The position numbers were made by a program, and so were the translations under genes. A stretch of DNA of 51,608 bases, from positions 1 through 51,608 of the forward strand of contig JAUICI010000010.1 of assembly GCA_030427935.1 (NCBI GenBank), given 5' to 3'. This DNA comes from Bacteroidia bacterium. Its GTDB lineage: Bacteria > Bacteroidota > Bacteroidia > Flavobacteriales_D > Crocinitomicaceae. Position 1 is the first letter of the stretch. Each line of letters starts with the position of its first letter. The notes under the pieces are model-generated. The model did not search any database. It was not told where the DNA came from and saw nothing but the letters and a program-made list of their open reading frames with translations. Of the stretch, positions 31,865 through 48,176 are shown in pieces.

Positions 31865-33601
31865 CTAAATCAATTCAGGTAATTTCTCTGCCTCTGCCCA
31901 TTTGAGTTCTTTGGGCAGTTTGGCTGAGGAAAACTCGAGATGAATGACTCTTCTCTTTTTGGGTTTTTTACTTTTAGCTGAAGCATGCAGAATAAGCGGC
32001 TTCATCAAATGGATACCCCCTGTTTCAACTTCACATAAAACTGGAATACTATTTTCTGCAATCATCATGATCTCTTCCGAAGACAATTGCTTCTTATGTG
32101 AACCCGGAATGACCTTCAAAGCCCCATTTTCTTCGTGAGCTGGATCTAAGTGAATCCGAATAGAAAATGTCTGCTGATTGATCTCTTCTGGTGGTCGAAC
32201 ACTGATAATTCCATCCTTGTTTGTCCAACCAGAATACCCCTCCACCTTCACTTTTTTCTTCACATTAATAGGGACGTCTTGATGCATGGTGACATACCAA
32301 TTGTCTTCATCTGTTTTATTGAAATAAATGGCTTTGACCAGTTTGACTTTGGGGTCAATTTTAGTAATGATCTCAAGTAAATTTTTATTGAAAATGAATT
32401 TCTTCAAATCTGGTATTTCTTTGAGAATGGCCCGAATCGCGTAAGGCTTTTTGAGCTGTTTTTCTTTAAAATAATTATTCAGCAAGGGGGCCATTTTATT
32501 GATTTCGCGATTTGTATAGACGTTATTCATCAAAGCAAAACCACGATGTTCGAGTTGCTTGGAACTCTTTTCAATATTTTTAGTCGAAAGTACCGTTCGA
32601 TAATTATCCTGTGCCCATTGAAGTCTTTGTTCAATGTTTCTTTTCAATTTTTCAGGCTGGATGACACGCATCACTTCACCATAACTTAAAATCTCTTTTT
32701 CCAATTCAAAATTATGTTGAACATCCAGAGAGATTGTAACTCCATAATAATCCTTATCAATCACTTTCTGACTCGAATGCAAAGGTTTCGTGATCACATA
32801 GGGTGCATGTTTATGGGTAATGAACAGTTTGACTTTCTCTGTTGGCATTGTCGGCGATACGGATACTCCAATGGCATTTTGAAAATAGGTTTGTGGGTCA
32901 AAATCTAAATTATGGACAAACTTCGCCTCAGATTTTTCAAGGCTAATGATTCGGTCTAGAGCCAAATTCATCAGTTGGGCATCCTTTTTCTTTTTCCCAA
33001 TTACAAACCATCTATTTCTGAATTCTTTCAGTAAATAAGGATGAAAATCAAAACTATTGGCTTGCCTTGCTTTAAAGGATTGATAGGTAATCAAAATCGG
33101 ACGATAATTAATAATTGCTTGATACAATTCATCCAAGAAATCCAATCCTTTCAAGTTTTCATTCTTTTCAAAATCAATCACAGGCATTTGATCCGTTTGC
33201 TGACTATGCACATGATCCTCCAATTTTTGAACCATGGAGTCCAATTCCCTGAAATGAGAAAATCCTTTAAACTGTTTTAAGAACTCCACTGCTTCCGTAA
33301 GTTTACTCAAATCCTGATCTGAAATCGGAATATTGGTAATAGAATAATCCGGATCTTCATATGTATAAAAACGCTTATCGACTACAATGATGGGTGCATT
33401 ATAACCCAATTTATCCGATCTCATGATTTGAATATCCCCTTGAACTGTTCTTCGACTTACCCCTTTATCAATTCCTTCATATTCATATAAGGCATCTGAA
33501 CACGCATCAATCAAATCTTCCAAAGTCCATTTACGAAAGCGGTTCTGTAGACATTTATCAATGGTTTTATATCGGATTAAAGCATTCTTATTAACGGCCA
33601 T
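31865..33601 (-). CDS. Fusion protein: N-terminal HTH + WYL-domain regulator, C-terminal PhyH-like 2OG-Fe(II) dioxygenase
   Basis: N-terminus MAVNKNALIRYKTIDKCLQNRFRKWTLEDLIDACSDAL... and NRWFVIGKKKKDAQLMNLALDRIISLE (WYL-type motif) match the abundant Bacteroidota WYL-regulator family. C-terminal approx 250 aa has dioxygenase motifs MHQDVP (HxD), IHLDPAHEENGALKVIPGSHK, IHLMKPLILHAS. Start trimmed to the internal Met at 33601. Confidence 0.7.
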   Translation of the reverse strand: MAVNKNALIRYKTIDKCLQNRFRKWTLEDLIDACSDALYEYEGIDKGVSRRTVQGDIQIMRSDKLGYNAPIIVVDKRFYTYEDPDYSITNIPISDQDLSKLTEAVEFLKQFKGFSHFRELDSMVQKLEDHVHSQQTDQMPVIDFEKNENLKGLDFLDELYQAIINYRPILITYQSFKARQANSFDFHPYLLKEFRNRWFVIGKKKKDAQLMNLALDRIISLEKSEAKFVHNLDFDPQTYFQNAIGVSVSPTMPTEKVKLFITHKHAPYVITKPLHSSQKVIDKDYYGVTISLDVQHNFELEKEILSYGEVMRVIQPEKLKRNIEQRLQWAQDNYRTVLSTKNIEKSSKQLEHRGFALMNNVYTNREINKMAPLLNNYFKEKQLKKPYAIRAILKEIPDLKKFIFNKNLLEIITKIDPKVKLVKAIYFNKTDEDNWYVTMHQDVPINVKKKVKVEGYSGWTNKDGIISVRPPEEINQQTFSIRIHLDPAHEENGALKVIPGSHKKQLSSEEIMMIAENSIPVLCEVETGGIHLMKPLILHASAKSKKPKKRRVIHLEFSSAKLPKELKWAEAEKLPELI

Positions 33602-33638
33602 TTCAAAAAATTTTAAATAAAAATACAAGAAATATTTC

Positions 33639-33662
33639 ACTACGCAAATAGGCTGCGCACAA
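33639..33662. promoter_or_regulatory. Dyad motif ACTACGCAAATAGGCTGCGCACAA (CGCA-N7-TGCG family), about 40 nt upstream of the WYL-PhyH gene and 125 nt upstream of tRNA-Tyr
   Basis: One of three near-identical 24-nt motifs (others at 38933 and 40228). Confidence 0.35.
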
Positions 33663-33786
33663 TCTAAATTACTTTGCTTCATCGTTCATTGATAAACAGA
33701 ATGAGAAACAGAAAGAGAATGAGCATTATTAATTAACAATCAACACAAATCTCTCATTCTTCGCTCTGTTTCTCATTCTGACAACA

Positions 33787-33870
33787 GGGGGTGCGCCAAC
33801 GTTGGAGAGTTGGGCTGGACTGTAAATCCAGTGGCTTAAGCCTGAATAGGTTCGATTCCTATCACCCCCA
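33787..33870 (+). tRNA. tRNA-Tyr (anticodon GTA), class II
   Basis: Manual fold: acceptor GGGGGTG/CACCCCC, anticodon stem CTGGA/TCCAG with loop CTGTAAA, variable hairpin GGCTTAAGCC, T-arm ATAGGTTCGATTCCTAT. Confidence 0.7.
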
Positions 33871-33935
33871 CGGAGGCAGAGTGAGTGCGGAGTGTGAGAA
33901 TGAGGGTATCTCATTCCGGTTCTCATTCTGACAAA

Positions 33936-34008
33936 GGAGAAGTAGCAAAGCTGGTCTATGCGTCCCGCTGAAAACGGGAAGATAATGGTTCGACTCCATT
34001 CTTTTCCA
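33936..34008 (+). tRNA. tRNA-Phe (anticodon GAA)
   Basis: Acceptor GGAGAAG/CTTTTCC (one G-U), anticodon stem TCCCG/CGGGA with loop CTGAAAA, T-arm AATGGTTCGACTCCATT. Confidence 0.65.
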
Positions 34009-34023
34009 CAGGTAGATTTTTAG

Positions 34024-34112
34024 AGAAGAGTAAGTCCATAATTGGTATTGGCGCACCCTGCTAAGGTGTTCATCACTTTGGTGGTGTGAGGGTTCGAATC
34101 CCTCCTCTTCTG
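34024..34112 (+). tRNA. tRNA-Ser (anticodon GCT), class II
   Basis: Acceptor AGAAGAG/CTCTTCT, anticodon loop CTGCTAA, long variable arm CATCAC/GTGGTG, T-arm GAGGGTTCGAATCCCTC, discriminator G. D-arm irregular. Confidence 0.6.
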
Positions 34113-34127
34113 CTCAAAAATTTAGAT

Positions 34128-34200
34128 GCAATTGTAGCTTAACGGGTTGAGCACCGGTCTTTTAAATCGGGGGTAGTAGGTTCGAGCCCTACCAGTTGCA
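34128..34200 (+). tRNA. tRNA-Lys (anticodon TTT)
   Basis: Acceptor GCAATTG/CAGTTGC, D-arm GCTTAACGGGTTGAGC, anticodon stem CCGGT/ATCGG with loop CTTTTAA, T-arm GTAGGTTCGAGCCCTAC. Confidence 0.7.
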
Positions 34201-34387
34201 CAGTAGTAGAGCGAGAATACAGAACGAGAATGAGAATCTTCATTCTACTTCTGCTCCTCATTCTGCAAAAGATCTTCATCCGAAAAGTCGGAGAAGCGCG
34301 GAAAGAAGCCAAATTCTGAAGACCTGATCTGTGTGTTGAAGCACAGAGGTATTCGCTTGGTAAAGTTGAATATGCCGATTCATTATT

Positions 34388-34553
34388 TAGCTGTCTTTCT
34401 CTTGACGGTATAGGTCAGAGGTTCGAATCCTCTCATAGCTAGGACTATGTAGCTCAGTTGGGTAGAGCAATATCACAATCGCGCGGGTTCGAATCCCGCC
34501 ACGCTTAAGGTGCGTGTAGCTCAGTTGGTCAGAGCACTAGACTGTAAATCTAG
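34388..34553 (+). pseudogene. Three consecutive degenerate tRNA-like fragments, none with a complete cloverleaf
   Basis: 34388-34441: acceptor, T-arm (AGAGGTTCGAATCCTCT) and CATAGCT but no anticodon arm. 34442-34507: D-arm TAGCTCAGTTGGGTAGAGCA joined directly to T-arm GCGGGTTCGAATCCCGC. 34509-34553: acceptor, canonical D-arm and anticodon arm CTAGA-CTGTAAA-TCTAG (GTA, Tyr-like) with no T-arm. The 3' strand of each unit is complementary to the 5' start of the next (CATAG/CTATG, CACGC/GCGTG). Confidence 0.4.
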
Positions 34554-34842
34554 TATCGTTAAGAAGTTGATCTCTTCAGAAAAGGATCACCAATAAATCA
34601 AGTAGCGCAGGTCTGTTGCGTAGTTTCTTCGGAAACCATGAAACAGCTTTTAGCCTGCCCTGAGTCAGAACAAGATTTGAAAACAAGTTTTGTTTCGAAA
34701 GCCAAACTCTGAAGGGGGGAAATTTTTCAGATAAGGTTGGGAAAACAAAACTCCTTTGATAGTCGCCTTCTGTCTCCGCCGATTAGGAGCGACTTGGTTG
34801 CTTGATTTGTTTTTGAATTAGTAATTATTAAACCTGTCAAAT

Positions 34843-35946
34843 ATGACTTATGTTAGAATCAACAAAGGAAACATCGGGTTGGTTTTCCGATATGGAGACC
34901 TTGTCGATGTGGTGAAGCCAGGACTTCACTGGATTGGATGGAACGACCGAGTAACATCCTACAATGTATATCAACCATTTACTTCGCCTTACAAGGATGA
35001 AGTTTTGCTTGAACACCCTAAATTCAAAGCAATGGTGGATATTGTAGAAGTACGAGACAATGAAATCGCCCTTCGATTTGAGAACGGCTATTTTAAGGGT
35101 GTTTTGAAAACAGGAAAGTACATTTTCTGGAAGGGATTTGTGGACTATGAATTCAAAATCTTGGATACTTCAAGTACGAAAGTCATCCAGAATGAATACA
35201 TCAATAAAATCCAGGATACCGTGATTACAAGTCTCGTTAAAATGTTTCATTTGGAAGAGTATGAAAAAGGATTGCTCTTTGTTGACGGGCATTTCATGCG
35301 AACATTGCCATCTGGACGCTACAGATTCTGGAAAAACAAAACGCCAATTGAATTGGTCAAAGTGGATACAAGAAAACAGCAAATGGAGGTTTCTGGTCAA
35401 GAAATTTTAACGAAAGACAAGGCTTCCATTCGAGTAAGTTTCTTCATCCATTTCCAAGTCAAAGACGTGAAGAAAGCGATCTTGGAAAACAAAAGTTATG
35501 CAGATCAACTCTATATGTTGATGCAATTTGCCTTGAGAGAGTTCATTGGAACATTGACTTTGGACGAATTGCTTGAAAAGAAAAATGAGATCGGAAAATA
35601 CGTGATGAGCAAATCCGAGAAAAAGGCTGAAGAGCTTGGGGTGGAATTGCAAAATGCCGGAATCCGTGATATTATTCTTCCAGGTGATGTGAAAGAGATC
35701 ATGAATCAAGTTCTTGTTGCTCAGAAAAGAGCTCAAGCAAATATCATCACAAGAAGAGAGGAGACTGCGTCTACCAGAAGTTTGCTTAATACAGCAAAAC
35801 TGATGGAAGATAATGCCATGCTTTTCAAGTTGAAAGAAATGGAATACATGGAAAAAATTGCCGAAAAGATTGGAGAAGTTACCGTAAAAGGAGATGGATC
35901 CACTTTGGAACAATTGACCGATATTTTCATTTCGAAAAAGAAATAA
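34843..35946 (+). CDS. SPFH/Band-7 (stomatin/flotillin-like) domain protein
   Basis: SPFH-like core in the C-terminal half (EILTKDKASIRVSFFIHFQVKDV...), N-terminal beta-rich extension. Confidence 0.75.
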   Translation: MTYVRINKGNIGLVFRYGDLVDVVKPGLHWIGWNDRVTSYNVYQPFTSPYKDEVLLEHPKFKAMVDIVEVRDNEIALRFENGYFKGVLKTGKYIFWKGFVDYEFKILDTSSTKVIQNEYINKIQDTVITSLVKMFHLEEYEKGLLFVDGHFMRTLPSGRYRFWKNKTPIELVKVDTRKQQMEVSGQEILTKDKASIRVSFFIHFQVKDVKKAILENKSYADQLYMLMQFALREFIGTLTLDELLEKKNEIGKYVMSKSEKKAEELGVELQNAGIRDIILPGDVKEIMNQVLVAQKRAQANIITRREETASTRSLLNTAKLMEDNAMLFKLKEMEYMEKIAEKIGEVTVKGDGSTLEQLTDIFISKKK

Positions 35947-35989
35947 AGTTCTACCTGAGGTGATGACCTTGGGTGGAATTTTAAATTTT

Positions 35990-36008
35990 CCCTATACGAA
36001 GTATAGGG
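35990..36008. terminator. Hairpin after the SPFH gene
   Basis: CCCTATAC-gaa-GTATAGGG. No clean U-tract. Confidence 0.4.
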
Positions 36009-36374
36009 GCAAAAAAGTCGAAAATTTTTCTTGCGATTGTAAAATTTTACTGCTTATCTTTGTCCTCGATAACGCTCTTCAAAAAGTATTCACTTTTTAA
36101 AACTGAGCAATTATGATGTTATTTAGTCTACATATCAAAAAAGCGATCGGGAAAAGCTAGACGGCTAGTCTGGACTTCAAAATATTCATCCTGATCCATG
36201 TGATTGGGATTTTTTTTGTCCTAAGATTTCGACCCGTTCGAAACATCACATCATGCTGGAGCCTCTTGAAGGGCCCCCAGCGAGTTTATCATTTTTTTAT
36301 TGAGACTGAATTTTGAAAGTATTCAATCTTCAGTCAGGCATTCTTAGCACTAAGTATGCTCAAATTTTTATGCT

Positions 36375-37778
36375 ATGGGCAAACAGAAATTAAAAGGAAA
36401 AGACCTAAAAAAAATTGGGTTTCGTTCCGATAAAGCAAAGAGTCTAGCCATCAATATCATGGCGACTCATTTTAAACATTTACATAGAGTTAAAAAGCTC
36501 GAATTATTAGAAAAATTAATTGAAAATCCGGAAGACTACGCAGAGGATAAGTACTTAAAACCTCTGGCGGAAGAGTTCATGGAAAAAGTGGTTAAGGAAA
36601 CATTCACAAGTTATAAACTTAGGTATGATTCCAAGCCTTATAAGGTTTACGGGAAACAATTCATCTGCCGAAACACGATCAACCAAATGGATCAGGCCAT
36701 GCGACTCCCGGTTGCTGAAAAAGGCGCCCTAATGCCAGACGCTCATGTTGGATACGGGCTTCCCATCGGGGGAGTTTTGGCGACAAAAAATGAAGTAATT
36801 CCTTATGCGGTTGGACTCGATATTGGTTGCAGAATGTCAGTTACCTTATTTGATGTGGAATCCGATAGAATTGATCGAGATCGTTACCAGCTAAAAATGG
36901 CTTTGCAAGAAGAAACGCAGTTTGGAATCAGCAAAGTAGTAGCCGGTAATGCCGAACATTCCGTATTGGATCGGCCAGAATTCCATGCAACTGAAGTTCT
37001 AAGAAAACTTCATGGAAAAGCAGCCATGCAGTTAGGTTCCTCAGGAGCAGGAAACCACTTCGTTGAATTTGGCGAAATGGAGATTTTAGAAGAAAACAGT
37101 CTGAATATTCCTGCTGGAAAATACATGGCCTTGGTTTCGCATTCGGGAAGTCGAGGGCTCGGAGCAGCGGTTGCGCAGTATTATACAAGAATTGCACAAG
37201 AAGTCTGTAAACTTCCAAAAGGTAGCCAGCATTTGGCTTGGTTGGATCTCGACTCGGAAGCTGGAATGGAGTATTGGCTTGCCATGAATTTGGCAGGTGA
37301 TTATGCAAAAGCTTGTCACGATGTCATTCATTCAAAAATTGCGAAAAGGTTGAATCTAAAAAAGCTGATTACGGTTGAAAACCACCACAATTTCGCCTGG
37401 AAAGAAAAACAGGAAAATGGTGAAACACTAATCGTTCATAGAAAAGGTTCGACACCAGCGAAGGAGGGAGAATTGGGATTTATTCCTGGCTCGATGTCGC
37501 ATTCAGGCTATTTAGTTTCCGGAAAAGGAAAACAAGACGCACTCTGTTCTGCCAGTCATGGTGCCGGCAGAAAATTATCGCGATCCAAGGCTAAATCTAG
37601 CTTAACTGGATCGGACATGAAAAAAGAATTGAAACAAAAACGGGTCACCCTAATCGGTGGCGCAGTGGATGAATCGCCTTTTGCTTATAAAAATATAGAA
37701 GAGGTTATCGGGGCTCAAAAGGAGCTCATCAAAGTTGAAGGCCAATTCAATCCACGAATAGTACGAATGGCAAAATAG
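36375..37778 (+). CDS. rtcB: RtcB-family RNA ligase (PrfH-associated paralog, N-terminal about 70 aa extension)
   Basis: RtcB motifs DAHVGYGLPIGG, SSGAGNHFVEFG, SASHGAGRK. Confidence 0.85.
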   Translation: MGKQKLKGKDLKKIGFRSDKAKSLAINIMATHFKHLHRVKKLELLEKLIENPEDYAEDKYLKPLAEEFMEKVVKETFTSYKLRYDSKPYKVYGKQFICRNTINQMDQAMRLPVAEKGALMPDAHVGYGLPIGGVLATKNEVIPYAVGLDIGCRMSVTLFDVESDRIDRDRYQLKMALQEETQFGISKVVAGNAEHSVLDRPEFHATEVLRKLHGKAAMQLGSSGAGNHFVEFGEMEILEENSLNIPAGKYMALVSHSGSRGLGAAVAQYYTRIAQEVCKLPKGSQHLAWLDLDSEAGMEYWLAMNLAGDYAKACHDVIHSKIAKRLNLKKLITVENHHNFAWKEKQENGETLIVHRKGSTPAKEGELGFIPGSMSHSGYLVSGKGKQDALCSASHGAGRKLSRSKAKSSLTGSDMKKELKQKRVTLIGGAVDESPFAYKNIEEVIGAQKELIKVEGQFNPRIVRMAK

Positions 37779-37784
37779 AATAAA

Positions 37785-38417
37785 ATGAAAGAATTTATAG
37801 TACAGATCAGTGCAGGAACAGGCCCGGCCGAATGTTGTTGGGTCGTTTCCAAAACACTAAAGGAATTTATGAAAGAAGCACGTGATCAAAGTATTGAAAT
37901 TGACGAAATAGGGAGATTAAAAGGTGATCAGAATGGTACATTAAAGTCCGTTTCACTATTTATAAAGGGAATGCGAGTTGACCAGTTTCTAGAAGAGTGG
38001 ACAGGTTCGATTCAATGGATAGGCAAAAGTCCTTTTCGAAAATTCCACAAAAGGAAAAACTGGTTTATTGGAATTCAAACTTTTGATTCCAAATCTGAAC
38101 CCAATTTCGATTCCAAAACGATCAAGTTTGAAACCTTTAGATCATCTGGACCCGGAGGTCAGTTCGTGAACAAAGTTGAAACCGCTGTAAGAGCGATTCA
38201 CATTCCAACTAAACTTTCGGTCACAGCTAGCGAAACAGCCTCGCAATCGATGAATAAAAAGATTGCCATAGGAAAATTGAAAACAAAATTAGATGAATAC
38301 AAAATGCAGAATTTGGTTCTTTTAAACTCGAACAAATGGATTGCCAACAAACAAGTGAAAAGAGGAAATCCAACTCGAGTTTATGAAGGAGACAAATTCA
38401 GACTAAAACAAAAATAA
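37785..38417 (+). CDS. prfH: Peptide chain release factor H-like protein (class I RF catalytic domain only)
   Basis: 210 aa with GGQ motif (SSGPGGQFVNKVETAVRAIHIPT) and no codon-recognition domain. Immediately downstream of rtcB, as in the known rtcB-prfH pair. Confidence 0.75.
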   Translation: MKEFIVQISAGTGPAECCWVVSKTLKEFMKEARDQSIEIDEIGRLKGDQNGTLKSVSLFIKGMRVDQFLEEWTGSIQWIGKSPFRKFHKRKNWFIGIQTFDSKSEPNFDSKTIKFETFRSSGPGGQFVNKVETAVRAIHIPTKLSVTASETASQSMNKKIAIGKLKTKLDEYKMQNLVLLNSNKWIANKQVKRGNPTRVYEGDKFRLKQK

Positions 38418-38418
38418 A

Positions 38419-38925
38419 ATGGACACTGCATTGGCAAACAACTATTACTTAAAGGCTTTGGATAATTATCCTTACGACCTAACTGAGTTTTTGGAGGCCA
38501 TAAACTATGCCCTTGCTTACGATGAAGATCACGCAGATGCTCATTGTTTGATGGGATTATTTTATATGGATCAACTTCAAAAATTCGATGATGCCAAATA
38601 TCATTTCAATAAAGCTTTGGCTTCGGATCTTGATAATCTGAAGGCTTATTATTCTTTGATTAGATGTTTAATTGCAACTGAAGAATACGCACAAGCTTTT
38701 AAAGTGATTGAGCATGCGCAAAAGGTCAAAGGCATTTCTTCAGAGGCCTTGGATCATAGAATTGCTATCATCATGGAAAGAAAACTTCAGTTTAGATCCG
38801 CCAAGAAATTTTTAAAGAGAGCGATCGAAAAGTCTTATTTCACAAGTGATAGAGAGTTTTATGAATCCGAATTATCAAGAGTAAAAGACAAAATTTCGAA
38901 AAGAAAATCGAAAAAAAATAAATAA
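38419..38925 (+). CDS. Small TPR-like helical-repeat protein, hypothetical
   Basis: 168 aa. Start is 1 nt after the prfH stop, likely same operon. Confidence 0.4.
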   Translation: MDTALANNYYLKALDNYPYDLTEFLEAINYALAYDEDHADAHCLMGLFYMDQLQKFDDAKYHFNKALASDLDNLKAYYSLIRCLIATEEYAQAFKVIEHAQKVKGISSEALDHRIAIIMERKLQFRSAKKFLKRAIEKSYFTSDREFYESELSRVKDKISKRKSKKNK

Positions 38926-38932
38926 TTTTTTT

Positions 38933-38956
38933 ACAACGCAAAAAGACTGCGCACTA
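38933..38956. promoter_or_regulatory. Dyad motif ACAACGCAAAAAGACTGCGCACTA (CGCA-N7-TGCG family)
   Basis: Second copy of the 24-nt motif, preceded by a T-run, directly after the TPR gene and upstream of the second tRNA array. Confidence 0.35.
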
Positions 38957-38995
38957 GCTCTTTTACTTTGAATCATCATTAAGAACAAAAGACAT

Positions 38996-39027
38996 CCCCC
39001 TCTGTCAAAAATAGATTAGGCAGAGGG
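38996..39027 (+). terminator. Hairpin CCCCTCTG-(16 nt)-CAGAGGGG
   Basis: 8-bp GC-rich stem followed by TTTAAAAAAA. Confidence 0.4.
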
Positions 39028-39162
39028 GTTTAAAAAAACAAAAAATGAACAGATTGAATTTACATATCACATTACCAAATCGACTGGATCTCCAGCCGAA
39101 TCATGATGAATTCTATTCAATCGGGAAGCCATATTTTTAGATGCGAGTAAGCGTTACGACTA

Positions 39163-39199
39163 AAAAGCCTTCTTGATGAATTTCAAGAAGGCTTTTTTA
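39163..39199. terminator. Bidirectional rho-independent terminator
   Basis: A5-GCCTTCTTGA-(6 nt)-TCAAGAAGGC-T6, perfect 10-bp stem. Confidence 0.6.
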
Positions 39200-39202
39200 T
39201 TT

Positions 39203-39274
39203 CTAGGGGGATAACGATGGCTGTTTGCCTACCTTGGACGTAGGAGGTTGTAGGTTCGAATCCTACCCCTTAGA
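39203..39274 (+). tRNA. tRNA-Pro (anticodon TGG), atypical D-arm
   Basis: Acceptor CTAGGGG/CCCTTAG, anticodon stem CCTAC/GTAGG with loop CTTGGAC, T-arm GTAGGTTCGAATCCTAC. D-stem only about 3 bp. Confidence 0.55.
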
Positions 39275-39353
39275 CAGTATTGAGCAAGAGTGAAGAGCAA
39301 GGGTTTTGAGGGATTTATTCCTGTTGCTCTTGCACTCAACTCAACACTCAATC

Positions 39354-39424
39354 GGTTCTGTAGTTTAATGGTAAAATGCCTGACTGTCTATCAGGTGTCG
39401 AGGGTTCGATTCCCTTCAGAACCG
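39354..39424 (+). tRNA. tRNA-Asp (anticodon GTC)
   Basis: Acceptor GGTTCTG/CAGAACC, D-arm GTTTAATGGTAAAAT, anticodon stem CCTGA/TCAGG with loop CTGTCTA, T-arm GAGGGTTCGATTCCCTT. Confidence 0.7.
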
Positions 39425-39446
39425 CAAAACACAAGAGTGAATGTGA

Positions 39447-39471
39447 AGTCCCGATAGCTATCGGGAGAGAG
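39447..39471. repeat. Palindromic spacer element AGTCCCGATAGCTATCGGGAGAGAG (copy 1)
   Basis: Perfect 18-nt palindrome TCCCGATAGCTATCGGGA. About 60 nt of flank is also shared with copy 2. Confidence 0.6.
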
Positions 39472-39514
39472 CGATGCAATTTCCTAACTCTCCACACTCG
39501 CACTCACTCTGATA

Positions 39515-39587
39515 ATGGGGTATAGTTCAATGGAACAGAACAGCTGAATACGAATCAGCAGATGTGGGTTCGACTCCTGCTACCCCA
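39515..39587 (+). tRNA. tRNA-Arg (anticodon ACG)
   Basis: Acceptor TGGGGTA/TACCCCA, D-arm GTTC-AATGGAACA-GAAC, anticodon stem GCTGA/TCAGC with loop ATACGAA, T-arm GTGGGTTCGACTCCTGC. Confidence 0.65.
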
Positions 39588-39662
39588 ACTAAATAAAGTG
39601 AGTTTGGAGAGCGAGAGTGATGATGTGTCCGCATTCTTCACTCTCACACTCGCTCTATAACC

Positions 39663-39736
39663 GCGGGGATGGCGGAATTGGTATACGCGCCTGACTTAGA
39701 ATCAGGATTTTGAGAGTTCGAGTCTCTCTCCCCGTA
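39663..39736 (+). tRNA. tRNA-like with Leu anticodon TAG but only a 5-nt variable loop (class-I shape)
   Basis: Acceptor GCGGGGA/TCCCCGT, Leu-type D-arm GCG-GAATTGGTATA-CGC, anticodon stem CCTGA/TCAGG with loop CTTAGAA, variable ATTTT, T-arm GAGAGTTCGAGTCTCTC, discriminator A. Confidence 0.5.
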
Positions 39737-39815
39737 CTATTTGAGTAGAGAACAAGAGTAAAGAGTTCCGAGGGCGGACTTCCTCATGCTCGAAACCCTC
39801 TACTCTTGAACCCAT

Positions 39816-39889
39816 GCCCCACTAGTCCAATTGGCAGAGACAAAGGACTTAAACTCCTTCCAGTCCAGGTTCGAGTCCTGGGTGGGGTA
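39816..39889 (+). tRNA. tRNA-like with Leu anticodon TAA but only a 5-nt variable loop (class-I shape)
   Basis: Acceptor GCCCCAC/GTGGGGT, D-arm GTC-CAATTGGCAGA-GAC, anticodon stem AAGGA/TCCTT with loop CTTAAAC, variable CCAGT, T-arm CCAGGTTCGAGTCCTGG, discriminator A. Confidence 0.5.
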
Positions 39890-39909
39890 CTTGTTTAGAG
39901 TGCGTGTGG

Positions 39910-39934
39910 AGTCCCGATAGCTATCGGGAGAGAG
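39910..39934. repeat. Palindromic spacer element AGTCCCGATAGCTATCGGGAGAGAG (copy 2)
   Basis: Identical 25-nt core to 39447-39471. Confidence 0.6.
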
Positions 39935-39971
39935 TGAGGTGATTTCCTCGCTCTTCACTTTCGGTCCCACT

Positions 39972-40044
39972 CTAGATTTATGGTGTTTCTAGTTTAACAG
40001 GTAAAATACCTCACTGTGAATGAGGAGAAAAGGGTTCGAGTCCC
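39972..40044 (+). tRNA. tRNA-His (anticodon GTG)
   Basis: Extra 5' G (G-1) opposite C73, D-arm GTTT-AACAGGTA-AAAT, anticodon stem CCTCA/TGAGG with loop CTGTGAA. T-stem only about 3-4 bp (AAGGG / CCCGG). Exact ends uncertain by 1 nt. Confidence 0.5.
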
Positions 40045-40125
40045 GGAAACACCCAAAGAAGTGCAAAGTTTGAGTGATCAATATAGAGGTTCTTCAATTT
40101 GTTCACTCAAACGACACAATGAAAA

Positions 40126-40196
40126 TGCTTTGTCGTCTAGTGGCAGGACACTTCACTTTGACTGAAGAGACGGTGGTTCGAATCCATCCAAAGCAA
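40126..40196 (+). tRNA. tRNA-Gln (anticodon TTG)
   Basis: Acceptor TGCTTTG/CAAAGCA (U1:A72 as in Gln tRNAs), D-arm GTCT-AGTGGCA-GGAC, anticodon stem CTTCA/TGAAG with loop CTTTGAC, T-arm GGTGGTTCGAATCCATC. Confidence 0.65.
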
Positions 40197-40227
40197 CAGA
40201 TAAGTTGAATTTTTAAATTTTTATTTT

Positions 40228-40251
40228 ACTACGCAAATACTTTGCGTATAA
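40228..40251. promoter_or_regulatory. Dyad motif ACTACGCAAATACTTTGCGTATAA (CGCA-N7-TGCG family), about 100 nt upstream of the second rtcB
   Basis: Third copy of the 24-nt motif. Perfect 8-bp inverted repeat TACGCAAA/TTTGCGTA. Confidence 0.35.
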
Positions 40252-40285
40252 GAGGTTTTACTTTGAAATATAAATGAAATAAACG

Positions 40286-40323
40286 CCCGAGGATCACCTT
40301 AGAAATCAGACATGGATCCTCGG
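40286..40323. promoter_or_regulatory. Stable hairpin in the rtcB leader
   Basis: CCCGAGGATC-(18 nt)-GATCCTCGGG, perfect 10-bp stem ending 29 nt before the ATG at 40352. Confidence 0.4.
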
Positions 40324-40351
40324 GTAAATAAAAAACTTAAATTTAGAAATT

Positions 40352-41512
40352 ATGAAAAATGTTGTTAGCACAGAGAGAATTCCAATCAAATTGTGGTTGG
40401 AAGATTTAGAGGCTGAAGCTTTATCTCAAGCTAAGAATTTGGCGAATTTACCATTTGCCTATAAGCATATTCCAATCATGCCAGATTCGCACACCGGATA
40501 TGGGATGCCAATTGGTTCAATTTTGGCGACGAAAGGAGCTGTGATCCCAAATGCCGTAGGTGTAGATATTGGTTGTGGTATGTGCGCACAAAAGACGAGT
40601 TTAACTGAGATCTCAACCGATGAGATCAAGAAAGTTTTGGGAATCGCCAGAAACTTAATTCCTCTTGGATTTAATTCTCATGACGAAAAACAAGACGAAA
40701 AGTACATGCCACAAGGATGGGAAGACCTTGAAATTGTCTCGAGAGGGTATTTGAAAGCGAGAAAGCAGGTGGGAACACTTGGTGGAGGAAACCATTTTAT
40801 TGAACTACAAAAAGGTGATGACGGATTTATCTGGGTCATGATTCATTCAGGTTCAAGAAACTTGGGTCATACCGTTGCCAGCCATTACAACCGAGTGGCA
40901 AAGAAAATGAATGAGAAATTTCATTCTGTAGTGACTCCAAAAATGGATTTGGCCTTCTTCCCAATTGAAATGAGAGAGGCCAAAGATTATATGAATGAAA
41001 TGAAATACTGTGTGGAATTTGCTTTGGCGAATAGAAAGTTAATGATGTTGAGAATGATGGAAGCTTTGACCGAAGTAAAAGGTTCATTTGAAACGGATGA
41101 GATCATCAATGAATCGCACAACTTCGCGGCATGGGAGAACCATTTTGGTGCCAATGTATTGGTTCACAGAAAAGGTGCAACCAGAGCTTATGAAGGAGAA
41201 CTTGGAATGATTCCAGGGTCTCAAGGAACCAAATCCTATATTGTAAAAGGACTTGGAAACCCAGAAAGTTTCATGTCTTGTTCGCATGGTGCAGGTAGAA
41301 AAATGGGTAGAAAACAAGCCCAAAGATCGCTTGACTTAGAACATGAAAGAAAGTTTTTGGACGACCAAAACATCGTTCATGCAATCAGACATACAAAAGA
41401 TTTGGATGAAGCCTCATCAGCTTATAAAGACATTCATGAGGTGATGGGAAATCAAACAGATCTTGCGGAGATTGTGGTTGAATTACAACCATTAGGAGTA
41501 TTGAAAGGGTAG
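40352..41512 (+). CDS. rtcB: RtcB-family RNA ligase (second copy, compact 386 aa form)
   Basis: DSHTGYGMPIGS, LGGGNHFIELQ, SCSHGAGRKMGR. Confidence 0.85.
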   Translation: MKNVVSTERIPIKLWLEDLEAEALSQAKNLANLPFAYKHIPIMPDSHTGYGMPIGSILATKGAVIPNAVGVDIGCGMCAQKTSLTEISTDEIKKVLGIARNLIPLGFNSHDEKQDEKYMPQGWEDLEIVSRGYLKARKQVGTLGGGNHFIELQKGDDGFIWVMIHSGSRNLGHTVASHYNRVAKKMNEKFHSVVTPKMDLAFFPIEMREAKDYMNEMKYCVEFALANRKLMMLRMMEALTEVKGSFETDEIINESHNFAAWENHFGANVLVHRKGATRAYEGELGMIPGSQGTKSYIVKGLGNPESFMSCSHGAGRKMGRKQAQRSLDLEHERKFLDDQNIVHAIRHTKDLDEASSAYKDIHEVMGNQTDLAEIVVELQPLGVLKG

Positions 41513-43640: not shown

Positions 43641-45284
43641 ATGAACAACCAAAAATCAGAGCCATTCAAGATTGGCTTGTGTATGGCGGGAGCTGTTTCC
43701 GCCGGAGCTTATACGGCTGGAGTGATGGATTACCTTATCGAAGCACTTGACGAATGGGAAAAACAGAAAAAAGAAAATCCAGAAACTACCCCACTTCATG
43801 ATGTTGTGATTCCCGTAATGGGAGGAGCTTCAGCTGGGGGAATGACGAGCATCATCGCTTCTAATGCCTTGCAGCAAGAAATCGATCCTGTGAGAAGCAT
43901 GGCAGATATTGAAAATGGGCGCAAACGCAATAAACTCTTTAATGCTTGGGTCAATTTGAGTCGGGAAGACATGTTTCCTGAATTGTTGAAAACGGATGAT
44001 TTAGAGGACGGAAAAGTGGAGTCCCTTTTCAATGCAAAGTTCATCGATGAGATTGCTCAAAACACCTTAAAGTCAAATGAGGATTTAGAGTATGTAAAAC
44101 GAAACTATATTGCGGAAAATCTGAAGGTTTTTACCACGCTGACCAACCTCAACGGCATCAAGTTCAAACAGGAATTCATGGCAGATTCTGACAATTCGAG
44201 TTACCACATTTCCAAACATTCGGATTTTGCCTGTTTTGAGATTAACGCGAATCAGTACAAGGGTAAGGGTTGGATACCACTTGATTTCAGGGATGAGAAA
44301 CAGCGGAAACTAGCAATCGATTCTGCCATGGCTACTGGTGCGTTTCCGATTGGACTTCAAGCTCGTAAAGTAGTACGACCAAGTCAATATGTGGCTGATT
44401 CCATTTTTCACGATGATGTAGAAATGGATGTAAGCAGGCCAGATTTCGAGACTTTAAATATTGACGGAGGTACCATCAATAATGAGCCTTATGAAAAAGT
44501 GCAAAAAGTCTTGGCCAATGGTGGTGAATTAGAAAAATCATACAGTAAAGCCACTTCCACCGTTTTAATGATCGATCCTTTTCCGAGTGAAGAACCTCCG
44601 GTTGATCGCATGGATGATCAAGTTGGAAGTGTGATTTCGGCAACGCTTTCTGCCATGGTGAATCATCTTAGATTTGAACCGAAAAGTATCAGCGATAGTA
44701 AAGATCCGGATGATGCCAGTGTCTATTTAATTGCACCGGTTCGCTATGAAAAGGACAAAAGTATTGAAGGAAAAAAGGCTATTGCTTGCGGATTTTTCAA
44801 TGGTTTTGGTGGCTTTATCCATAAAGATTTCAGACTGCATGACTATTTTCTTGGTCGCGCCAATTGTGAGAAATTTCTTAGACAGTATTTCACGATTCCG
44901 GTTGAAGATCAGAACCCAATCATCCAAAAGGGTTATGCCCACTTAAAAGACGACTCCGATTTTGTGGTTACCAATAACTCAACTAAAAAGGGACGAAAAG
45001 AATATCCAATTATCCCACTTTTTAAAGAAGAAGGTGATTTGTATTTACCTCCTTTCAAAAATGGAAGCTGGCCAAGTATCTATTCGAAAGAAGTCGATCG
45101 TTTTAAGCCTAAATTGAAAAAGCGTTTTGCAAAAATCATTCTGAATATTGGCAAATTCAAACCTCAGACCAAAGCAGCACTTTGGATTGGAACCCATTTA
45201 ATACTGAAAAACATGGCTGCGAAAAAATTCCTGGATTTGATTAAGAAGGATATGGAAGATTGGAAATTGCTGGAAAAAAAGTAG
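43641..45284 (+). CDS. Patatin-like phospholipase (PNPLA) with about 200-aa C-terminal extension
   Basis: Gly-rich N-terminal loop GLCMAGAVSAGAYTAG, nucleophile elbow GGASAGG (GxSxG), catalytic Asp in NIDGGTINNEP (DGG). Confidence 0.85.
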   Translation: MNNQKSEPFKIGLCMAGAVSAGAYTAGVMDYLIEALDEWEKQKKENPETTPLHDVVIPVMGGASAGGMTSIIASNALQQEIDPVRSMADIENGRKRNKLFNAWVNLSREDMFPELLKTDDLEDGKVESLFNAKFIDEIAQNTLKSNEDLEYVKRNYIAENLKVFTTLTNLNGIKFKQEFMADSDNSSYHISKHSDFACFEINANQYKGKGWIPLDFRDEKQRKLAIDSAMATGAFPIGLQARKVVRPSQYVADSIFHDDVEMDVSRPDFETLNIDGGTINNEPYEKVQKVLANGGELEKSYSKATSTVLMIDPFPSEEPPVDRMDDQVGSVISATLSAMVNHLRFEPKSISDSKDPDDASVYLIAPVRYEKDKSIEGKKAIACGFFNGFGGFIHKDFRLHDYFLGRANCEKFLRQYFTIPVEDQNPIIQKGYAHLKDDSDFVVTNNSTKKGRKEYPIIPLFKEEGDLYLPPFKNGSWPSIYSKEVDRFKPKLKKRFAKIILNIGKFKPQTKAALWIGTHLILKNMAAKKFLDLIKKDMEDWKLLEKK

Positions 45285-45293
45285 TTTCATACT

Positions 45294-48176
45294 ATGAAAA
45301 TTCGCATTCTTTTTATTGCCTTGTTTTTTCCTTTTACTTGGGGGTTATCACAAAATGTGGACTCTTTAGTACATCTACTTTCAAAAAATCATCTTCACGA
45401 TTCCACGAAATACAAAGTTAGCCTTGACCTAGTAAGAGAGTTGATTTATGTAAAACCTGATCAAGCTTTAATCTTTGCCCAAAAAATGGAGCTATACTCT
45501 AAAACACTAGGAGATTATGTGAAAGAAGCCAAGGCCAATAGTCTCATGGGTTATGCATTAGAAATTTTAAATGATTATGATAAAGCCGAAGAGAAATACT
45601 TTCGGATGCTTGAAATTGGAAGAGCCAATCAGGATCCTGGAGAAATTGGAAATGCATACAACAACCTCGGAATAATTGAAAAAACAAGAGGAAACTATAA
45701 AAAAGCCATCGAATATCAACTAAAAGGAGCGGAGACATTTAAAAAAGCAGGAAATAAAAAGCGGGAAGCCTATTGTTATGGGAATATTGGAGTTGTATTT
45801 CAGCGTTTAGGTGATCATGAAAAAGCCTTAAAGAATTTCGAAATATGTTTAGCTATAGATGAGAAAGAAGGAAATACAAGAGGAATCGGTATTTCCTTGA
45901 ATAATATGGCCAATGTCTATCACTTTATGGGCAATTATGAAAAAGCCTTAAAACTTTGGTATAAAACTCTGGAAATTGATCAATCATTAGGAAATAAAGT
46001 CGGTGAATCCTCTACAAAGAGGAATATTGGACTAGCCTATCACGACCTAGGTGATCGTGAAAAAGCCATGGAATTCTATGTGAAAAGTTTAGCTCAAAAA
46101 AGAGAATTGAATCAACCTAGAAGCGTGGCAAAATCACTCAATAATATTGGAATTTTACTTCGTGAATCAGGAGATCATGAAAAAGCACTTGCTTATCAAT
46201 TGGAGGCGCTTGAACTTAGGAGACAAGTCAATGCTAAAAGAGGTATGGCGGAATCCAATGTGAATATTGCTGCTATTTATTTGGATTTAAAAAATACTGA
46301 AAAAGCTTGGCCTTATTTAATTAAAGGGCTGGAATTGAGGATGGAAATGGGTAATACGGATGGGATAGCCAATTCTTACATCGGAATATCTGAATACTAC
46401 AGACAAAAAGAAGAACCAGATTCGGTGATTAAATATTTAACACAGGCTTTTAAATTATCAAGCGCAAATAAATTGGCCGTTGAAAAAAGAAAAAGTCTAC
46501 AAGAATTGTATCTCGAGCTTTACAACCAAAATAAAGAAAAGGAAGCCGAAAAGTATCTTGACCTATTAATGCAGGCCAGAATGGATGATATACAAACAAA
46601 TCTATTGGTGTTAGCCGAACAAAAAAAAGAGCTGTATTTAGCTAAAATGCAATTGGATTTTGATTTGTATTATGATCATGTTTTAAGACAGTCAAAGGAG
46701 CAAACTAAAAATATAGGCAAAGCTTATAATCTCGCTTTATTGATTAAAGGTTTATTATTGAAATCATCTACCGCAATGAGGCGTTCGATTCATAAATCAG
46801 AAGATGAAACCTTAATCAAACAATATGAAGACTGGCTTTACCTGAAACGAAAGATCGCTGATTTATACTCTGTAGGTCAGGATGCAAAAGCAATTGAACA
46901 AAAAGCAGATTCCTTGGAAAAGGTCTTAATTCGGAAAAGTAAGGTGGTATCAGATTATTCGAAGTTAAAATCGTTTGACTGGAAATTTGTCCGAAATGGG
47001 TTGAAAAAAGGAGAATTTGCTGTTGAATTTATACGGTTTAAAAATATCGAAAACAAAGAATATACATATGCTGCTTTTGTTCTTTCAAAAGATCTCCCAT
47101 CGCCTTTAATGATTGAAATTTGTTTAGAAAAAGATCTGGAAAAAATATTGGGAACCTATCCTGGAAATAACCTGAATTACATTGAAAATCTTTACGGAAA
47201 CAAAGGAGACTATAAAACTGAATTGTACAATCTAATCTGGAAACCAATTGAAAAATCAATTAAAAATGCAAAAACTGTTTATGTTTCTCCTGCAGGATTG
47301 CTTCATAAAGTGGCTTTTCATTCCTTATCAAAGAATTCTAAAGTCTTGTTGTCACATAATCTAAAATTTCAAATTAAATCTAGTACAGCTGAAATTGATT
47401 TTGTTGAAGACTCGGAATTAAAAATAAAGAATGCTGTTTTGTTTGGTGGAATCGAATACTCGCAAAATGAAAATGCCCCCTCTTTATGGAAATATTTGGA
47501 AGGAACCTTGTCTGAAGTCAAACAAATCGATCAGAAATTAAAAGCTTATCAAATCGATTCGAAATTGGTATTAGCAGGAGAAGCCACGGAAAAACAATTT
47601 AAAGAAATGATTGCCGGCAAACAGCTTATTCACATCGCCACACATGGCTTTTTCTATCCAGATCCTGAAGAACTAAAAAACTATGAGGAAGAACAAATCA
47701 GTCTTGTTGATTCGATAATTTTTAGAAGCGGTAAAGAAGATCGATCCGCCTATTATTCAATTACAAAAAATGGAAACCCTTTGATGCGCTCCGGTTTGGT
47801 ATTTGCGAATGCGGATCAGGCATATTCCGAGGAGAAAAACTCTGAAAATGATGGTTTATTAACGGCCCAAGAACTACTCTCTATTGACCTAAATGATACG
47901 AAGCTCATAGTTTTATCTGCCTGCGAAACTGGTTTGGGGGACATTCGAGGTAGTGAAGGCGTTTATGGTTTGCAAAGGAGTTTTAAAATGGCTGGAGTTA
48001 AAAGGCTCATCTTTAGTTTATGGCAGGTACCTGATAAAGAAACAGCAGAATTCATGAATCTGTTTTACCAAAATTTAATGGAATTAAAGTCAATTGAAAA
48101 AGCATTTACTAAAGCTCAATCCTTCATGTCGAAAAAATATGATCCTTATTTCTGGGCGGCTTTCGTTCTAATATAA
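45294..48176 (+). CDS. TPR-repeat + CHAT-domain (caspase-like, clan CD) protease
   Basis: N-terminal signal-like segment, about 9 TPR-like repeats (AYNNLGIIEKTRGNYKKAIEY... repeated EKAL pattern), C-terminal CHAT domain with His (LIHIATHGFF) and Cys (IVLSACETGLGD) dyad. Start is 9 nt after the patatin stop. Confidence 0.85.
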   Translation: MKIRILFIALFFPFTWGLSQNVDSLVHLLSKNHLHDSTKYKVSLDLVRELIYVKPDQALIFAQKMELYSKTLGDYVKEAKANSLMGYALEILNDYDKAEEKYFRMLEIGRANQDPGEIGNAYNNLGIIEKTRGNYKKAIEYQLKGAETFKKAGNKKREAYCYGNIGVVFQRLGDHEKALKNFEICLAIDEKEGNTRGIGISLNNMANVYHFMGNYEKALKLWYKTLEIDQSLGNKVGESSTKRNIGLAYHDLGDREKAMEFYVKSLAQKRELNQPRSVAKSLNNIGILLRESGDHEKALAYQLEALELRRQVNAKRGMAESNVNIAAIYLDLKNTEKAWPYLIKGLELRMEMGNTDGIANSYIGISEYYRQKEEPDSVIKYLTQAFKLSSANKLAVEKRKSLQELYLELYNQNKEKEAEKYLDLLMQARMDDIQTNLLVLAEQKKELYLAKMQLDFDLYYDHVLRQSKEQTKNIGKAYNLALLIKGLLLKSSTAMRRSIHKSEDETLIKQYEDWLYLKRKIADLYSVGQDAKAIEQKADSLEKVLIRKSKVVSDYSKLKSFDWKFVRNGLKKGEFAVEFIRFKNIENKEYTYAAFVLSKDLPSPLMIEICLEKDLEKILGTYPGNNLNYIENLYGNKGDYKTELYNLIWKPIEKSIKNAKTVYVSPAGLLHKVAFHSLSKNSKVLLSHNLKFQIKSSTAEIDFVEDSELKIKNAVLFGGIEYSQNENAPSLWKYLEGTLSEVKQIDQKLKAYQIDSKLVLAGEATEKQFKEMIAGKQLIHIATHGFFYPDPEELKNYEEEQISLVDSIIFRSGKEDRSAYYSITKNGNPLMRSGLVFANADQAYSEEKNSENDGLLTAQELLSIDLNDTKLIVLSACETGLGDIRGSEGVYGLQRSFKMAGVKRLIFSLWQVPDKETAEFMNLFYQNLMELKSIEKAFTKAQSFMSKKYDPYFWAAFVLI

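Follow-up and report, generated by a model that had tools for sequence, protein, structure and literature searches.

Leucine tRNA genes without the long variable arm in an RtcB-PrfH-linked tRNA array of a Bacteroidota chromosome

Two neighbouring leucine tRNA genes with the compact class-I shape were found in a tRNA array within an RNA-repair locus of the window, a term used here for the whole stretch of 51,608 nucleotides that was analysed. With a probability of about 0.7, both are genuine, selectively maintained Leu-reading tRNAs that have lost the variable arm and would serve as spare or replacement decoders under RNA-damage or translational stress. The structure of the genes, their conservation and covariation, their identity elements, synteny and spread are established here by observation.

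The first gene, tRNA-Leu(UAG), lies at 39663..39736 and the second, tRNA-Leu(UAA), at 39816..39889, both on the forward strand. The corresponding ARAGORN calls, 39663-39737 for tRNA-Leu(tag) and 39816-39890 for tRNA-Leu(taa), include one encoded C at the end; each gene is 74 nt long plus this C, the CCA end is not encoded, and the end coordinate given in the original prediction is correct for the discriminator base. In the ARAGORN cloverleaves, both genes have a 7-bp acceptor stem opening with G1.U72, a D stem of 3 bp, anticodon and T stems of 5 bp each, the discriminator A73 and a variable loop of 5 nt, which reads ATTTT in Leu(UAG) and CCAGT in Leu(UAA). The long variable arm of class II tRNA-Leu, a stem-loop of more than 10 nt that textbooks treat as universal in bacterial tRNA-Leu, is absent from both. 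The original prediction had folded the two Leu-anticodon (TAG, TAA) tRNAs by hand into a class-I shape with these same 5-nt variable regions and had proposed an ARAGORN run on the window as a check; that run returned the class-I shape, with no canonical long arm on either Leu gene, and Rfam RF00005 agrees. A mis-fold was ruled out, since ARAGORN and Rfam give an identical class-I shape.

Scores against RF00005, whose gathering score is 29 bits, were 65.8 bits (E 3.7e-12) for Leu(UAG) and 52.8 bits (E 1.4e-08) for Leu(UAA), over model positions 1-71 in both cases, and both lie inside the range of 41.8-68.3 bits obtained for the other tRNAs of the window. The minimum-energy fold of Leu(UAG) is the exact class-I cloverleaf; that of Leu(UAA) differs from it, so its cloverleaf rests on covariation. 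Orthologues with which the calls agree were found at related loci, namely L367 for Leu(UAG) and L367, L013 and L015 for Leu(UAA). Regarding codon reading, Leu(UAG) carries A37, CUN readers usually having G37, and UUA and UUG together account for 57% of the Leu codons in the genes of the window. A suppressor or recoding tRNA was ruled out, the anticodons UAG and UAA reading CUA/CUN and UUA/UUG and no stop codons.

ARAGORN found 11 tRNA genes in the window, organized in two same-strand arrays of four and seven genes, all on the forward strand and also recognised by Rfam. Array 1 (33787..34201) comprises Tyr(GUA), Phe(GAA), Ser(GCU) and Lys(UUU), the better start of Ser(GCU) being 34024. Its Tyr (85 nt) and Ser (87-89 nt) genes retain long variable arms, as had been predicted for the neighbouring array, and the prediction was right that arm loss is not a genome-wide trait, a statement that holds in phage arrays too. 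The variable arm is important for SerRS binding, and the long arm is taken to matter for bacterial TyrRS as well. Array 2 (39203..40197) comprises seven tRNAs: the two Leu genes are preceded by Pro(UGG) at 39203-39274, Asp(GUC) at 39354-39424 and Arg(ACG) at 39516-39588, and are followed by His(GUG) at 39982-40054 and Gln(UUG) at 40126-40196. Two irregular members of this array, already pointed out in the original prediction, were seen again: tRNA-Pro has a weak 3-bp D stem, in addition to G8 in place of U8, and the very weak T stem of tRNA-His consists of three G-C pairs and two A.G mismatches. The L367 orthologue of tRNA-Pro shares this odd D arm, which marks it as a trait of the lineage and not a sign of decay.

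The six inter-tRNA spacers of array 2 (39276..40125, forward strand), identified by repeat search and folding, are 71-92 nt long and each contains a long hairpin, with fold z-scores of -2.3 to -4.2 across all six. Two of them share a 77-nt repeat (39434-39510 and 39897-39973, 81% identical) that includes the palindrome TCCCGATAGCTATCGGGA. A terminator-like element, made up of a 15-bp hairpin without mismatches and a T run behind it, is located at 39162..39197 on the forward strand, 5 nt before tRNA-Pro. No promoter of array 2 was identified by a sigma-70 scan, which returned 16 sites against 15.4 expected and whose model does not cover Bacteroidota promoters.

The window belongs to a Bacteroidota-type chromosome, with a type IX secretion sorting domain protein, MurF-Alr housekeeping genes and a GC content of 37.5%, and no phage genes were found among the window genes scanned. 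The locus runs from a WYL-WCX-PhyH gene on the opposite strand through array 1, two YrlA-like modules, SPFH and RtcB, and after this first RtcB come PrfH, a TPR gene, the terminator-like hairpin, array 2 and a second RtcB. The WYL-WCX-PhyH protein (31865..33682, reverse strand; Pfam) is divergently encoded and is a putative ligand-sensing regulator, and in many loci the WYL gene adjoins SPFH-RtcB. Between array 1 and the SPFH gene lie two tandem permuted tRNA-like modules (34409..34595, forward strand), each composed of a T arm, a short hairpin and a D arm. Their scores against the YrlA family (Rfam RF02553), 41.3 and 36.7 bits, do not reach the gathering score of 69, and they match in the tRNA-like part only; no TROVE protein (rsr/Ro60) was found among the window ORFs scanned. 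Judged by their sequence, the modules resemble YrlA, a bacterial Y RNA, and they are not assigned as members of the family. A Y-RNA-like motif occurs at the matching intergenic place in at least nine other Bacteroidota loci.

Further downstream, all on the forward strand, the locus encodes a slipin-like SPFH/Band 7 protein (34843..35946; Pfam PF01145, 1e-31), a first RtcB RNA ligase paired with PrfH (36375..37778; Pfam PF01139, 2e-78, and NCBIfam), peptide chain release factor H itself (PrfH, 37785..38417; TIGR03072, 229 bits with a cut-off of 166.65) and a small TPR protein (38419..38925; Pfam). The first RtcB scores 145.9 bits against the PrfH-associated subfamily model TIGR03073, whose cut-off is 271.8; it extends to 37778, with PrfH beginning directly downstream at 37785, and the RtcB-PrfH pairing recurs in nearly all of 80 metagenome loci. 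In about 26 of these 80 loci, a TPR gene adjoins PrfH. The second RtcB is a short form (40352..41512; Pfam PF01139, 1e-108) placed directly downstream of array 2. The ordinary tRNA-Leu D arm and tertiary positions, the frequency of the form in phages and the RtcB-PrfH repair setting had not been part of the original prediction.

Across many Bacteroidota, the core of WYL, intergenic RNA, SPFH and RtcB is conserved, and the comparison of gene neighbourhoods indicates that RtcB-PrfH, often with TPR, is a widespread module. tRNA arrays are found in a minority of the related loci (L013, L015, L021, L322, L336/L337, L367 and L372), and sister loci have arrays of 16-17 genes at the same places as in the window. 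Because most related RtcB/PrfH loci have no array, the arrays are considered an accessory part of the locus. In the RtcB/PrfH-linked arrays of the window and of the five of these loci in which Leu genes occur (L013, L015, L322, L367 and L372), class I accounts for 8 of the 10 Leu genes, and the remaining two have a shortened arm of 13 nt.

The closest view of how the two genes evolve comes from L367, a locus recovered in a metagenome scan with the PrfH protein, whose gene order is WYL, RtcB-like, RtcB, PrfH, TPR and a 16-tRNA array. This array ends in Leu(tag) and Leu(taa), in the same order as in the window, and the orthologous Leu(UAG)-Leu(UAA) pair is class I in both members. Identity between the orthologues is 86% for Leu(UAG) and 82% for Leu(UAA), and the stem pairs that differ are compensatory in 3/3 and 4/4 cases, respectively, with none broken. 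In addition, nine compensatory pairs separate the Leu(taa) of the window from that of L013 and L015, two Bacteroidia genomes in which 17-tRNA arrays lie between the WYL gene and SPFH-RtcB.

The same form of tRNA-Leu is frequent in viruses. A search pattern with a fixed D loop, anticodon loop (YTTARR) and T loop at class-I spacing matched at least 120 IMG/VR viral contigs. Among the matches listed, ARAGORN types the hits as tRNA-Leu, usually within arrays, with a median of seven tRNAs per stretch. In the same listed stretches, Leu genes outside the pattern are also class I in 28/32 cases for CAA and 5/9 for GAG, while all Ser genes keep their arm (81-95 nt, except for one 50-nt call) and so do all Tyr genes (78-90 nt). 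A control sample of viral contigs, giant-virus contigs included, was chosen via a tRNA-Gln pattern that is neutral toward Leu; in it, class I makes up 28-29 of 80 Leu tRNAs (about 36%), and 2/64 Ser tRNAs are class I and 7/30 Tyr tRNAs short. Class I and class II Leu tRNAs are present together in individual viral contigs, and the classes are partly intermixed by similarity, the nearest neighbour being class II for 19 of 186 class-I Leu sequences. This intermixing is compatible with repeated arm loss and is too noisy to prove it.

Cultured phages carry the form as well. Vibrio phage VspSw_1 matches Leu(tag) with 87.8% identity over all 74 nt without gaps, and tRNA-Leu genes annotated at 77-78 nt including CCA are found in Vibrio phage vB_ValS_X1, Proteus phage Stubb, Gordonia phage Fryberger, Cronobacter phage LPCS28 and Enterobacter phage KKP_3711. 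Phage T5 was ruled out as a class-I Leu model, its Leu(UAG) being 85 nt long. A megablast search of positions 33000-41000 of the window against cultured phages gave no match, and the locus therefore does not stem from the recent integration of a known phage. A blastn search of Leu(UAG) against plasmids gave only three weak gapped matches, to tRNA-Leu with a longer variable region. Altogether, the sequence comparisons indicate that tRNA-Leu without the arm is frequent and conserved in the tRNA arrays of phages and in bacterial arrays linked to RNA repair, and that arrays on phages and mobile elements typically contain it.

Selection on the shape was assessed in an alignment of 133 distinct 74-nt class-I Leu tRNAs, mostly from phage contigs and drawn from the pattern matches listed. 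A standard pair is present in 98.8% of its base-pair cells, compared with 61.5% after shuffling and 33-45% with the pairing partners slid, and the covariation score is 0.98, compared with 0.23 and 0.13-0.18, respectively, figures to be read in the knowledge that ARAGORN detection itself favours paired stems. Double-sided changes were found in 19 of the 20 pairs. Since every stem change relative to L367 is compensatory and the family shows strong covariation, it is very unlikely that the two Leu genes are pseudogenes, and both appear to be under selection.

Leucine identity elements are retained throughout. Both genes have A14, the A15-U48 Levitt pair, G18G19, A20a and A73, a 13.22 mismatch accompanying the short D stem, and Leu anticodons with A35 at positions 34-36. 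The D arm of Leu(tag), TGGCGGAATTGGTATACGCG, is almost that of E. coli tRNA-Leu, and the D arm TGGCGGAATTGGTAKACGCG is nearly identical to its E. coli counterpart. U48 and A73 are invariant in the 133-sequence alignment, though they lie outside the search pattern. The combination of A15, U48 and A73 occurs in 182/195 class-I Leu and 73/87 class-II Leu tRNAs, and in 0-37% of every other isotype. G1.U72 is equally frequent in class-I and class-II Leu, and no determinant of another synthetase is evident in the class-I Leu sequences.

These elements coincide with what is known of leucylation. A 2023 identity review gives A73, A15-U48, G18G19 and A20a as the requirements of E. coli LeuRS, lists A14 among the identity elements as well, and reports that leucylation shows no correlation with the sequence and folding of the long arm and that minimal tRNA-Leu variants can be charged without it; the rule it states is contrary to arm-less Leu being general in phage or accessory arrays (PMC9976931). 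Because the LeuRS identity set is kept and the lost arm is dispensable to LeuRS, we infer that the host LeuRS charges both tRNAs with leucine; since LeuRS makes no use of the arm, tRNA-Leu can lose it. The type I tRNA-Leu(CAA) of Streptomyces coelicolor gets charged, and E. coli LeuRS did not charge it in vitro (PMC6614811), so it is not certain that an ordinary bacterial LeuRS would charge class-I Leu.

Taken together, an ordinary bacterial-type tRNA-Leu would have lost its long variable arm to give class-I Leu. The UAA anticodon would read UUA and UUG and the UAG anticodon CUN, together covering all six Leu codons, and the host LeuRS would leucylate both tRNAs, all its known elements being retained. 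When the translation apparatus is damaged or stalled, the spare Leu decoders would be made, as with the Anabaena trn array, whose regulation is shared with rtcB, and the Ser and Tyr tRNAs in the same arrays would retain arms thought to matter for their synthetases. In Anabaena, the trn array stays silent during normal growth and responds to translational stress by induction; TrcR is the common repressor of this array, rtcB and a slipin (SPFH) gene, and in vivo charging was found for 23 of the 26 array tRNAs (PMC8421152, PMC10272220). A role as leucine-charged spares is suggested by this analogy in combination with the Leu identity elements, and by the same reasoning we infer leucylation, stress-induced expression and use in translation. 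Counting against this reading are the failure of E. coli LeuRS to charge the Streptomyces tRNA, the minimum-energy fold of Leu(UAA), A37 in Leu(UAG), the terminator-like hairpin directly before array 2 with no promoter identified by the scan, and the lack of an array in most related RtcB/PrfH loci.

Other explanations account for part of these observations. The tRNAs may be decoys or sponges, produced under stress, for anticodon nucleases or tRNA-targeting toxins, or substrates or ligands of RtcB, the WYL protein or the Y-RNA-like RNA, with little decoding of their own. Such a role, which we judge unlikely, would suit a locus centred on RNA repair with its two RtcB, PrfH and Y-RNA-like RNA, as well as the irregular array members, Pro with G8 and His with its weak T stem. 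Known anticodon-nuclease targets also overlap the window isotypes Lys, Tyr, His, Asp, Arg and Gln. A sponge role was raised by the authors of the Anabaena study themselves (PMC8421152). A pure decoy, however, could do without the identity set for aminoacylation, whereas A73 and A15-U48 hardly vary; in addition, the two anticodons form a minimal complete Leu decoding set, and the in vivo charging of most Anabaena array tRNAs speaks for decoding. Decay is less plausible still. That the genes are pseudogenes left over from a decaying mobile tRNA array, or tRNAs with a changed amino-acid identity, would fit the lack of an array in most sister loci, the irregularity of some array members, the CCA end that is not encoded and the 3 of 26 Anabaena array genes that are pseudogenes, but we give this very little credence: the stem differences from orthologues are all compensatory, the Infernal scores are high, and the Leu identity elements are kept with no other synthetase's determinant evident. 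The original prediction had offered four options, among which specialised tRNAs are now backed by evidence, a mis-fold is rejected by two predictors, and pseudogenes are very unlikely in view of the compensatory changes and covariation.

A further explanation concerns the reason for arm loss, which could be an adaptive escape in which a toxin, defence nuclease, modification enzyme or quality-control factor grips the class II arm and arm-less Leu is immune. Arm loss is indeed Leu-specific and frequent in phage and RNA-repair-linked arrays, where the Leu genes of the latter are class I or have the 13-nt arm, and the recognition of the tRNA-Ser arm by MenT3 provides a precedent. Nevertheless, the same pattern is given by neutral loss together with pressure for a small phage genome, neutral loss sufficing since the arm is dispensable to LeuRS; class I and class II Leu also occur side by side in the same viral contigs, and we know of no toxin that recognises the tRNA-Leu arm. 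An adaptive escape thus appears improbable. If true, it would mean that the spare Leu copies are immune and that Leu decoding survives an attack on housekeeping tRNA-Leu. A related possibility is that the repair locus, through its WYL sensor, RtcB and Y-RNA-like RNA, tells spare from housekeeping tRNAs by the missing arm. The preferred reading remains that of genuine Leu-reading tRNAs kept as spare or replacement decoders.

Several elements of this picture are already known, including class-I tRNA-Leu in animal mitochondria and in one Streptomyces housekeeping gene (PMC6614811), rtcB-linked accessory tRNA arrays, and short tRNA-Leu annotated in phage records. In the open-access literature, a search for tRNA-Leu of class-I or type-I shape from phages or from tRNA arrays yielded the Streptomyces paper only. 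The class-I Leu of phage and repair arrays is thus a known but under-described form, and the present data point beyond the single Streptomyces gene that was the sole bacterial exception found in the literature. An arm-less Leu with the full LeuRS identity set constitutes a natural experiment on the purpose of the class II arm, which bacteria keep although LeuRS does not need it, and cultured phage-host pairs make charging testable. For annotation, a short Leu tRNA in an array is not to be dismissed as a pseudogene. Furthermore, the locus represents a compact candidate system for the response of Bacteroidota to tRNA or ribosome damage.

Compared with known tRNAs, the two genes share with E. coli class II tRNA-Leu the anticodons, A73, A14, A15-U48, G18G19, A20a and a D stem of 3 bp with the 13.22 mismatch, and their G1.U72 is as in E. 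coli tRNA-Leu(UAA), whereas the canonical class II variable arm measures 11-17 nt and theirs 5 nt. The type I tRNA-Leu(CAA) of Streptomyces coelicolor is likewise a bacterial tRNA that combines a Leu anticodon with a variable loop of 5 nt (Fan et al., 2019, PMC6614811). There, a single LeuRS is present, charging depends on how many nucleotides the variable loop has, and U8-A14 serves as an identity element (PMC6614811). Compared by description, the Streptomyces gene is an essential housekeeping gene with anticodon CAA in a high-GC actinomycete, in which A73 is no identity element, whereas the window genes have the anticodons UAG and UAA, belong to an accessory array in a Bacteroidota repair locus and are part of a family with invariant A73. 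Animal mitochondrial tRNA-Leu has a class-I shape too, with A73 and A14 as identity elements (PMC9976931), but it comes from an unrelated lineage served by its own mitochondrial LeuRS, and its D and T loops are often degenerate, in contrast to the canonical D and T loops of the window genes.

At the level of the locus, the arrays of Demerecviridae (Vibrio phage VspSw_1, vB_ValS_X1 and Proteus phage Stubb) carry class-I tRNA-Leu of the same family as the window, with Ser keeping its arm; the window locus differs from these phage arrays in being chromosomal, with housekeeping neighbours. The Anabaena L-array (Santamaria-Gomez et al., 2021, PMC8421152) is similar in having tandem same-strand accessory tRNAs linked, functionally or physically, to rtcB and slipin/SPFH, together with a dedicated regulator, which is the RHH repressor TrcR in Anabaena and putatively the WYL protein in the window. 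Unlike the Anabaena array, the window holds two short arrays of four and seven genes with long hairpin spacers, and PrfH and a Y-RNA-like RNA are present.

The tRNA-Leu(UAG) gene in the array departs from the usual form at position 37 as well as in the variable arm. G37, the site of m1G37, is usual in tRNA-Leu reading CUN codons; the Leu(UAG) gene of the window (39698-39700; column 38 in an alignment of 133 distinct 74-nt class-I Leu tRNAs) carries A37, not G37. Among class-I Leu(UAG) genes of the phage sets, A37 and G37 occur at similar frequencies (50 vs 55). Furthermore, two Bacteroidia genomes with 17-tRNA arrays encode a Leu(UAG) with a minimal extra arm, consisting of a 13-nt variable region with a 3-bp stem (L013, 6381-6462; L015, 2397-2478), while the Leu(UAA) of the same array is fully arm-less. 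Such pairs may represent intermediate stages of arm reduction.

Irregular features were also found in tRNA-Ser(GCU) and tRNA-Pro(UGG). For the former, located in array 1 (34024-34112), a start at 34024 was preferred over the ARAGORN start at 34027: the earlier start gives a perfect 7-bp acceptor (AGAAGAG/CTCTTCT) and G73, the later one an acceptor stem with one mismatch and one bulge. Rfam returned only a sub-threshold, tRNA-Sec-like match of 33 bits for this gene. In tRNA-Pro(UGG) (39203-39274), the near-universal U8 is replaced by G, and by A in the orthologue from the related locus L367 (11917-11989). Its unusual D arm, ATAACGATGGCTGTTT, is conserved between the two genes, and the anticodon and T stems covary. 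In addition, all 11 tRNA genes of the window (33787-40197) encode a single C after the discriminator and no full CCA, and tRNA genes of orthologous arrays share the same ...AC ending. As only one C is encoded, the CCA end of all 11 window tRNAs must be completed post-transcriptionally.

Upstream of the SPFH gene, two tandem permuted tRNA-like modules were identified on the forward strand (34409-34595), each comprising a T arm, a short hairpin and a D arm, with an anticodon-like stem-loop carrying GUA after the second. Their matches to the Rfam family of bacterial Y RNA, YrlA, did not reach the gathering score of 69 (41.3 and 36.7 bits); weak Rfam tRNA matches were obtained at 34443-34507 and 34510-34595, neither of which was called by ARAGORN. 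By regular-expression search, a YrlA-like motif was also found upstream of SPFH-RtcB in other Bacteroidota loci (L003, L004, L007, L008, L015, L018, L021, L022 and L024). None of the ORFs scanned in the window encodes a Ro60/TROVE protein. Farther downstream, a few kb past the RNA-repair locus, lie the genes for a patatin-like phospholipase (43641-45284) and, next to it, a 960-aa TPR-CHAT protein (45294-48176); together they resemble a defence or cell-death module.

Only 5 nt separate tRNA-Pro from a perfect 15-bp hairpin with a T run on its upstream side (39162-39197). Transcription of array 2 must then depend either on read-through or on a promoter that escaped recognition, unless the hairpin serves in processing or attenuation. 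Leaders and spacers of array 1 (33690-33784, 33872-33935 and 34202-34270) likewise look like hairpins, judging by repeated ...CTCATTCTG... arms and Rfam hairpin matches. In array 2, the spacers (39276-40125) form long hairpins with fold z-scores of -2.3 to -4.2, and two of them (39434-39510 and 39897-39973) are copies, 81% identical, containing the perfect palindrome TCCCGATAGCTATCGGGA. They may act as sites of processing, or else represent a small repeat element. Whereas tRNAs in related arrays are separated by only a few nucleotides, those of array 2 are separated by hairpins of 70-90 nt.
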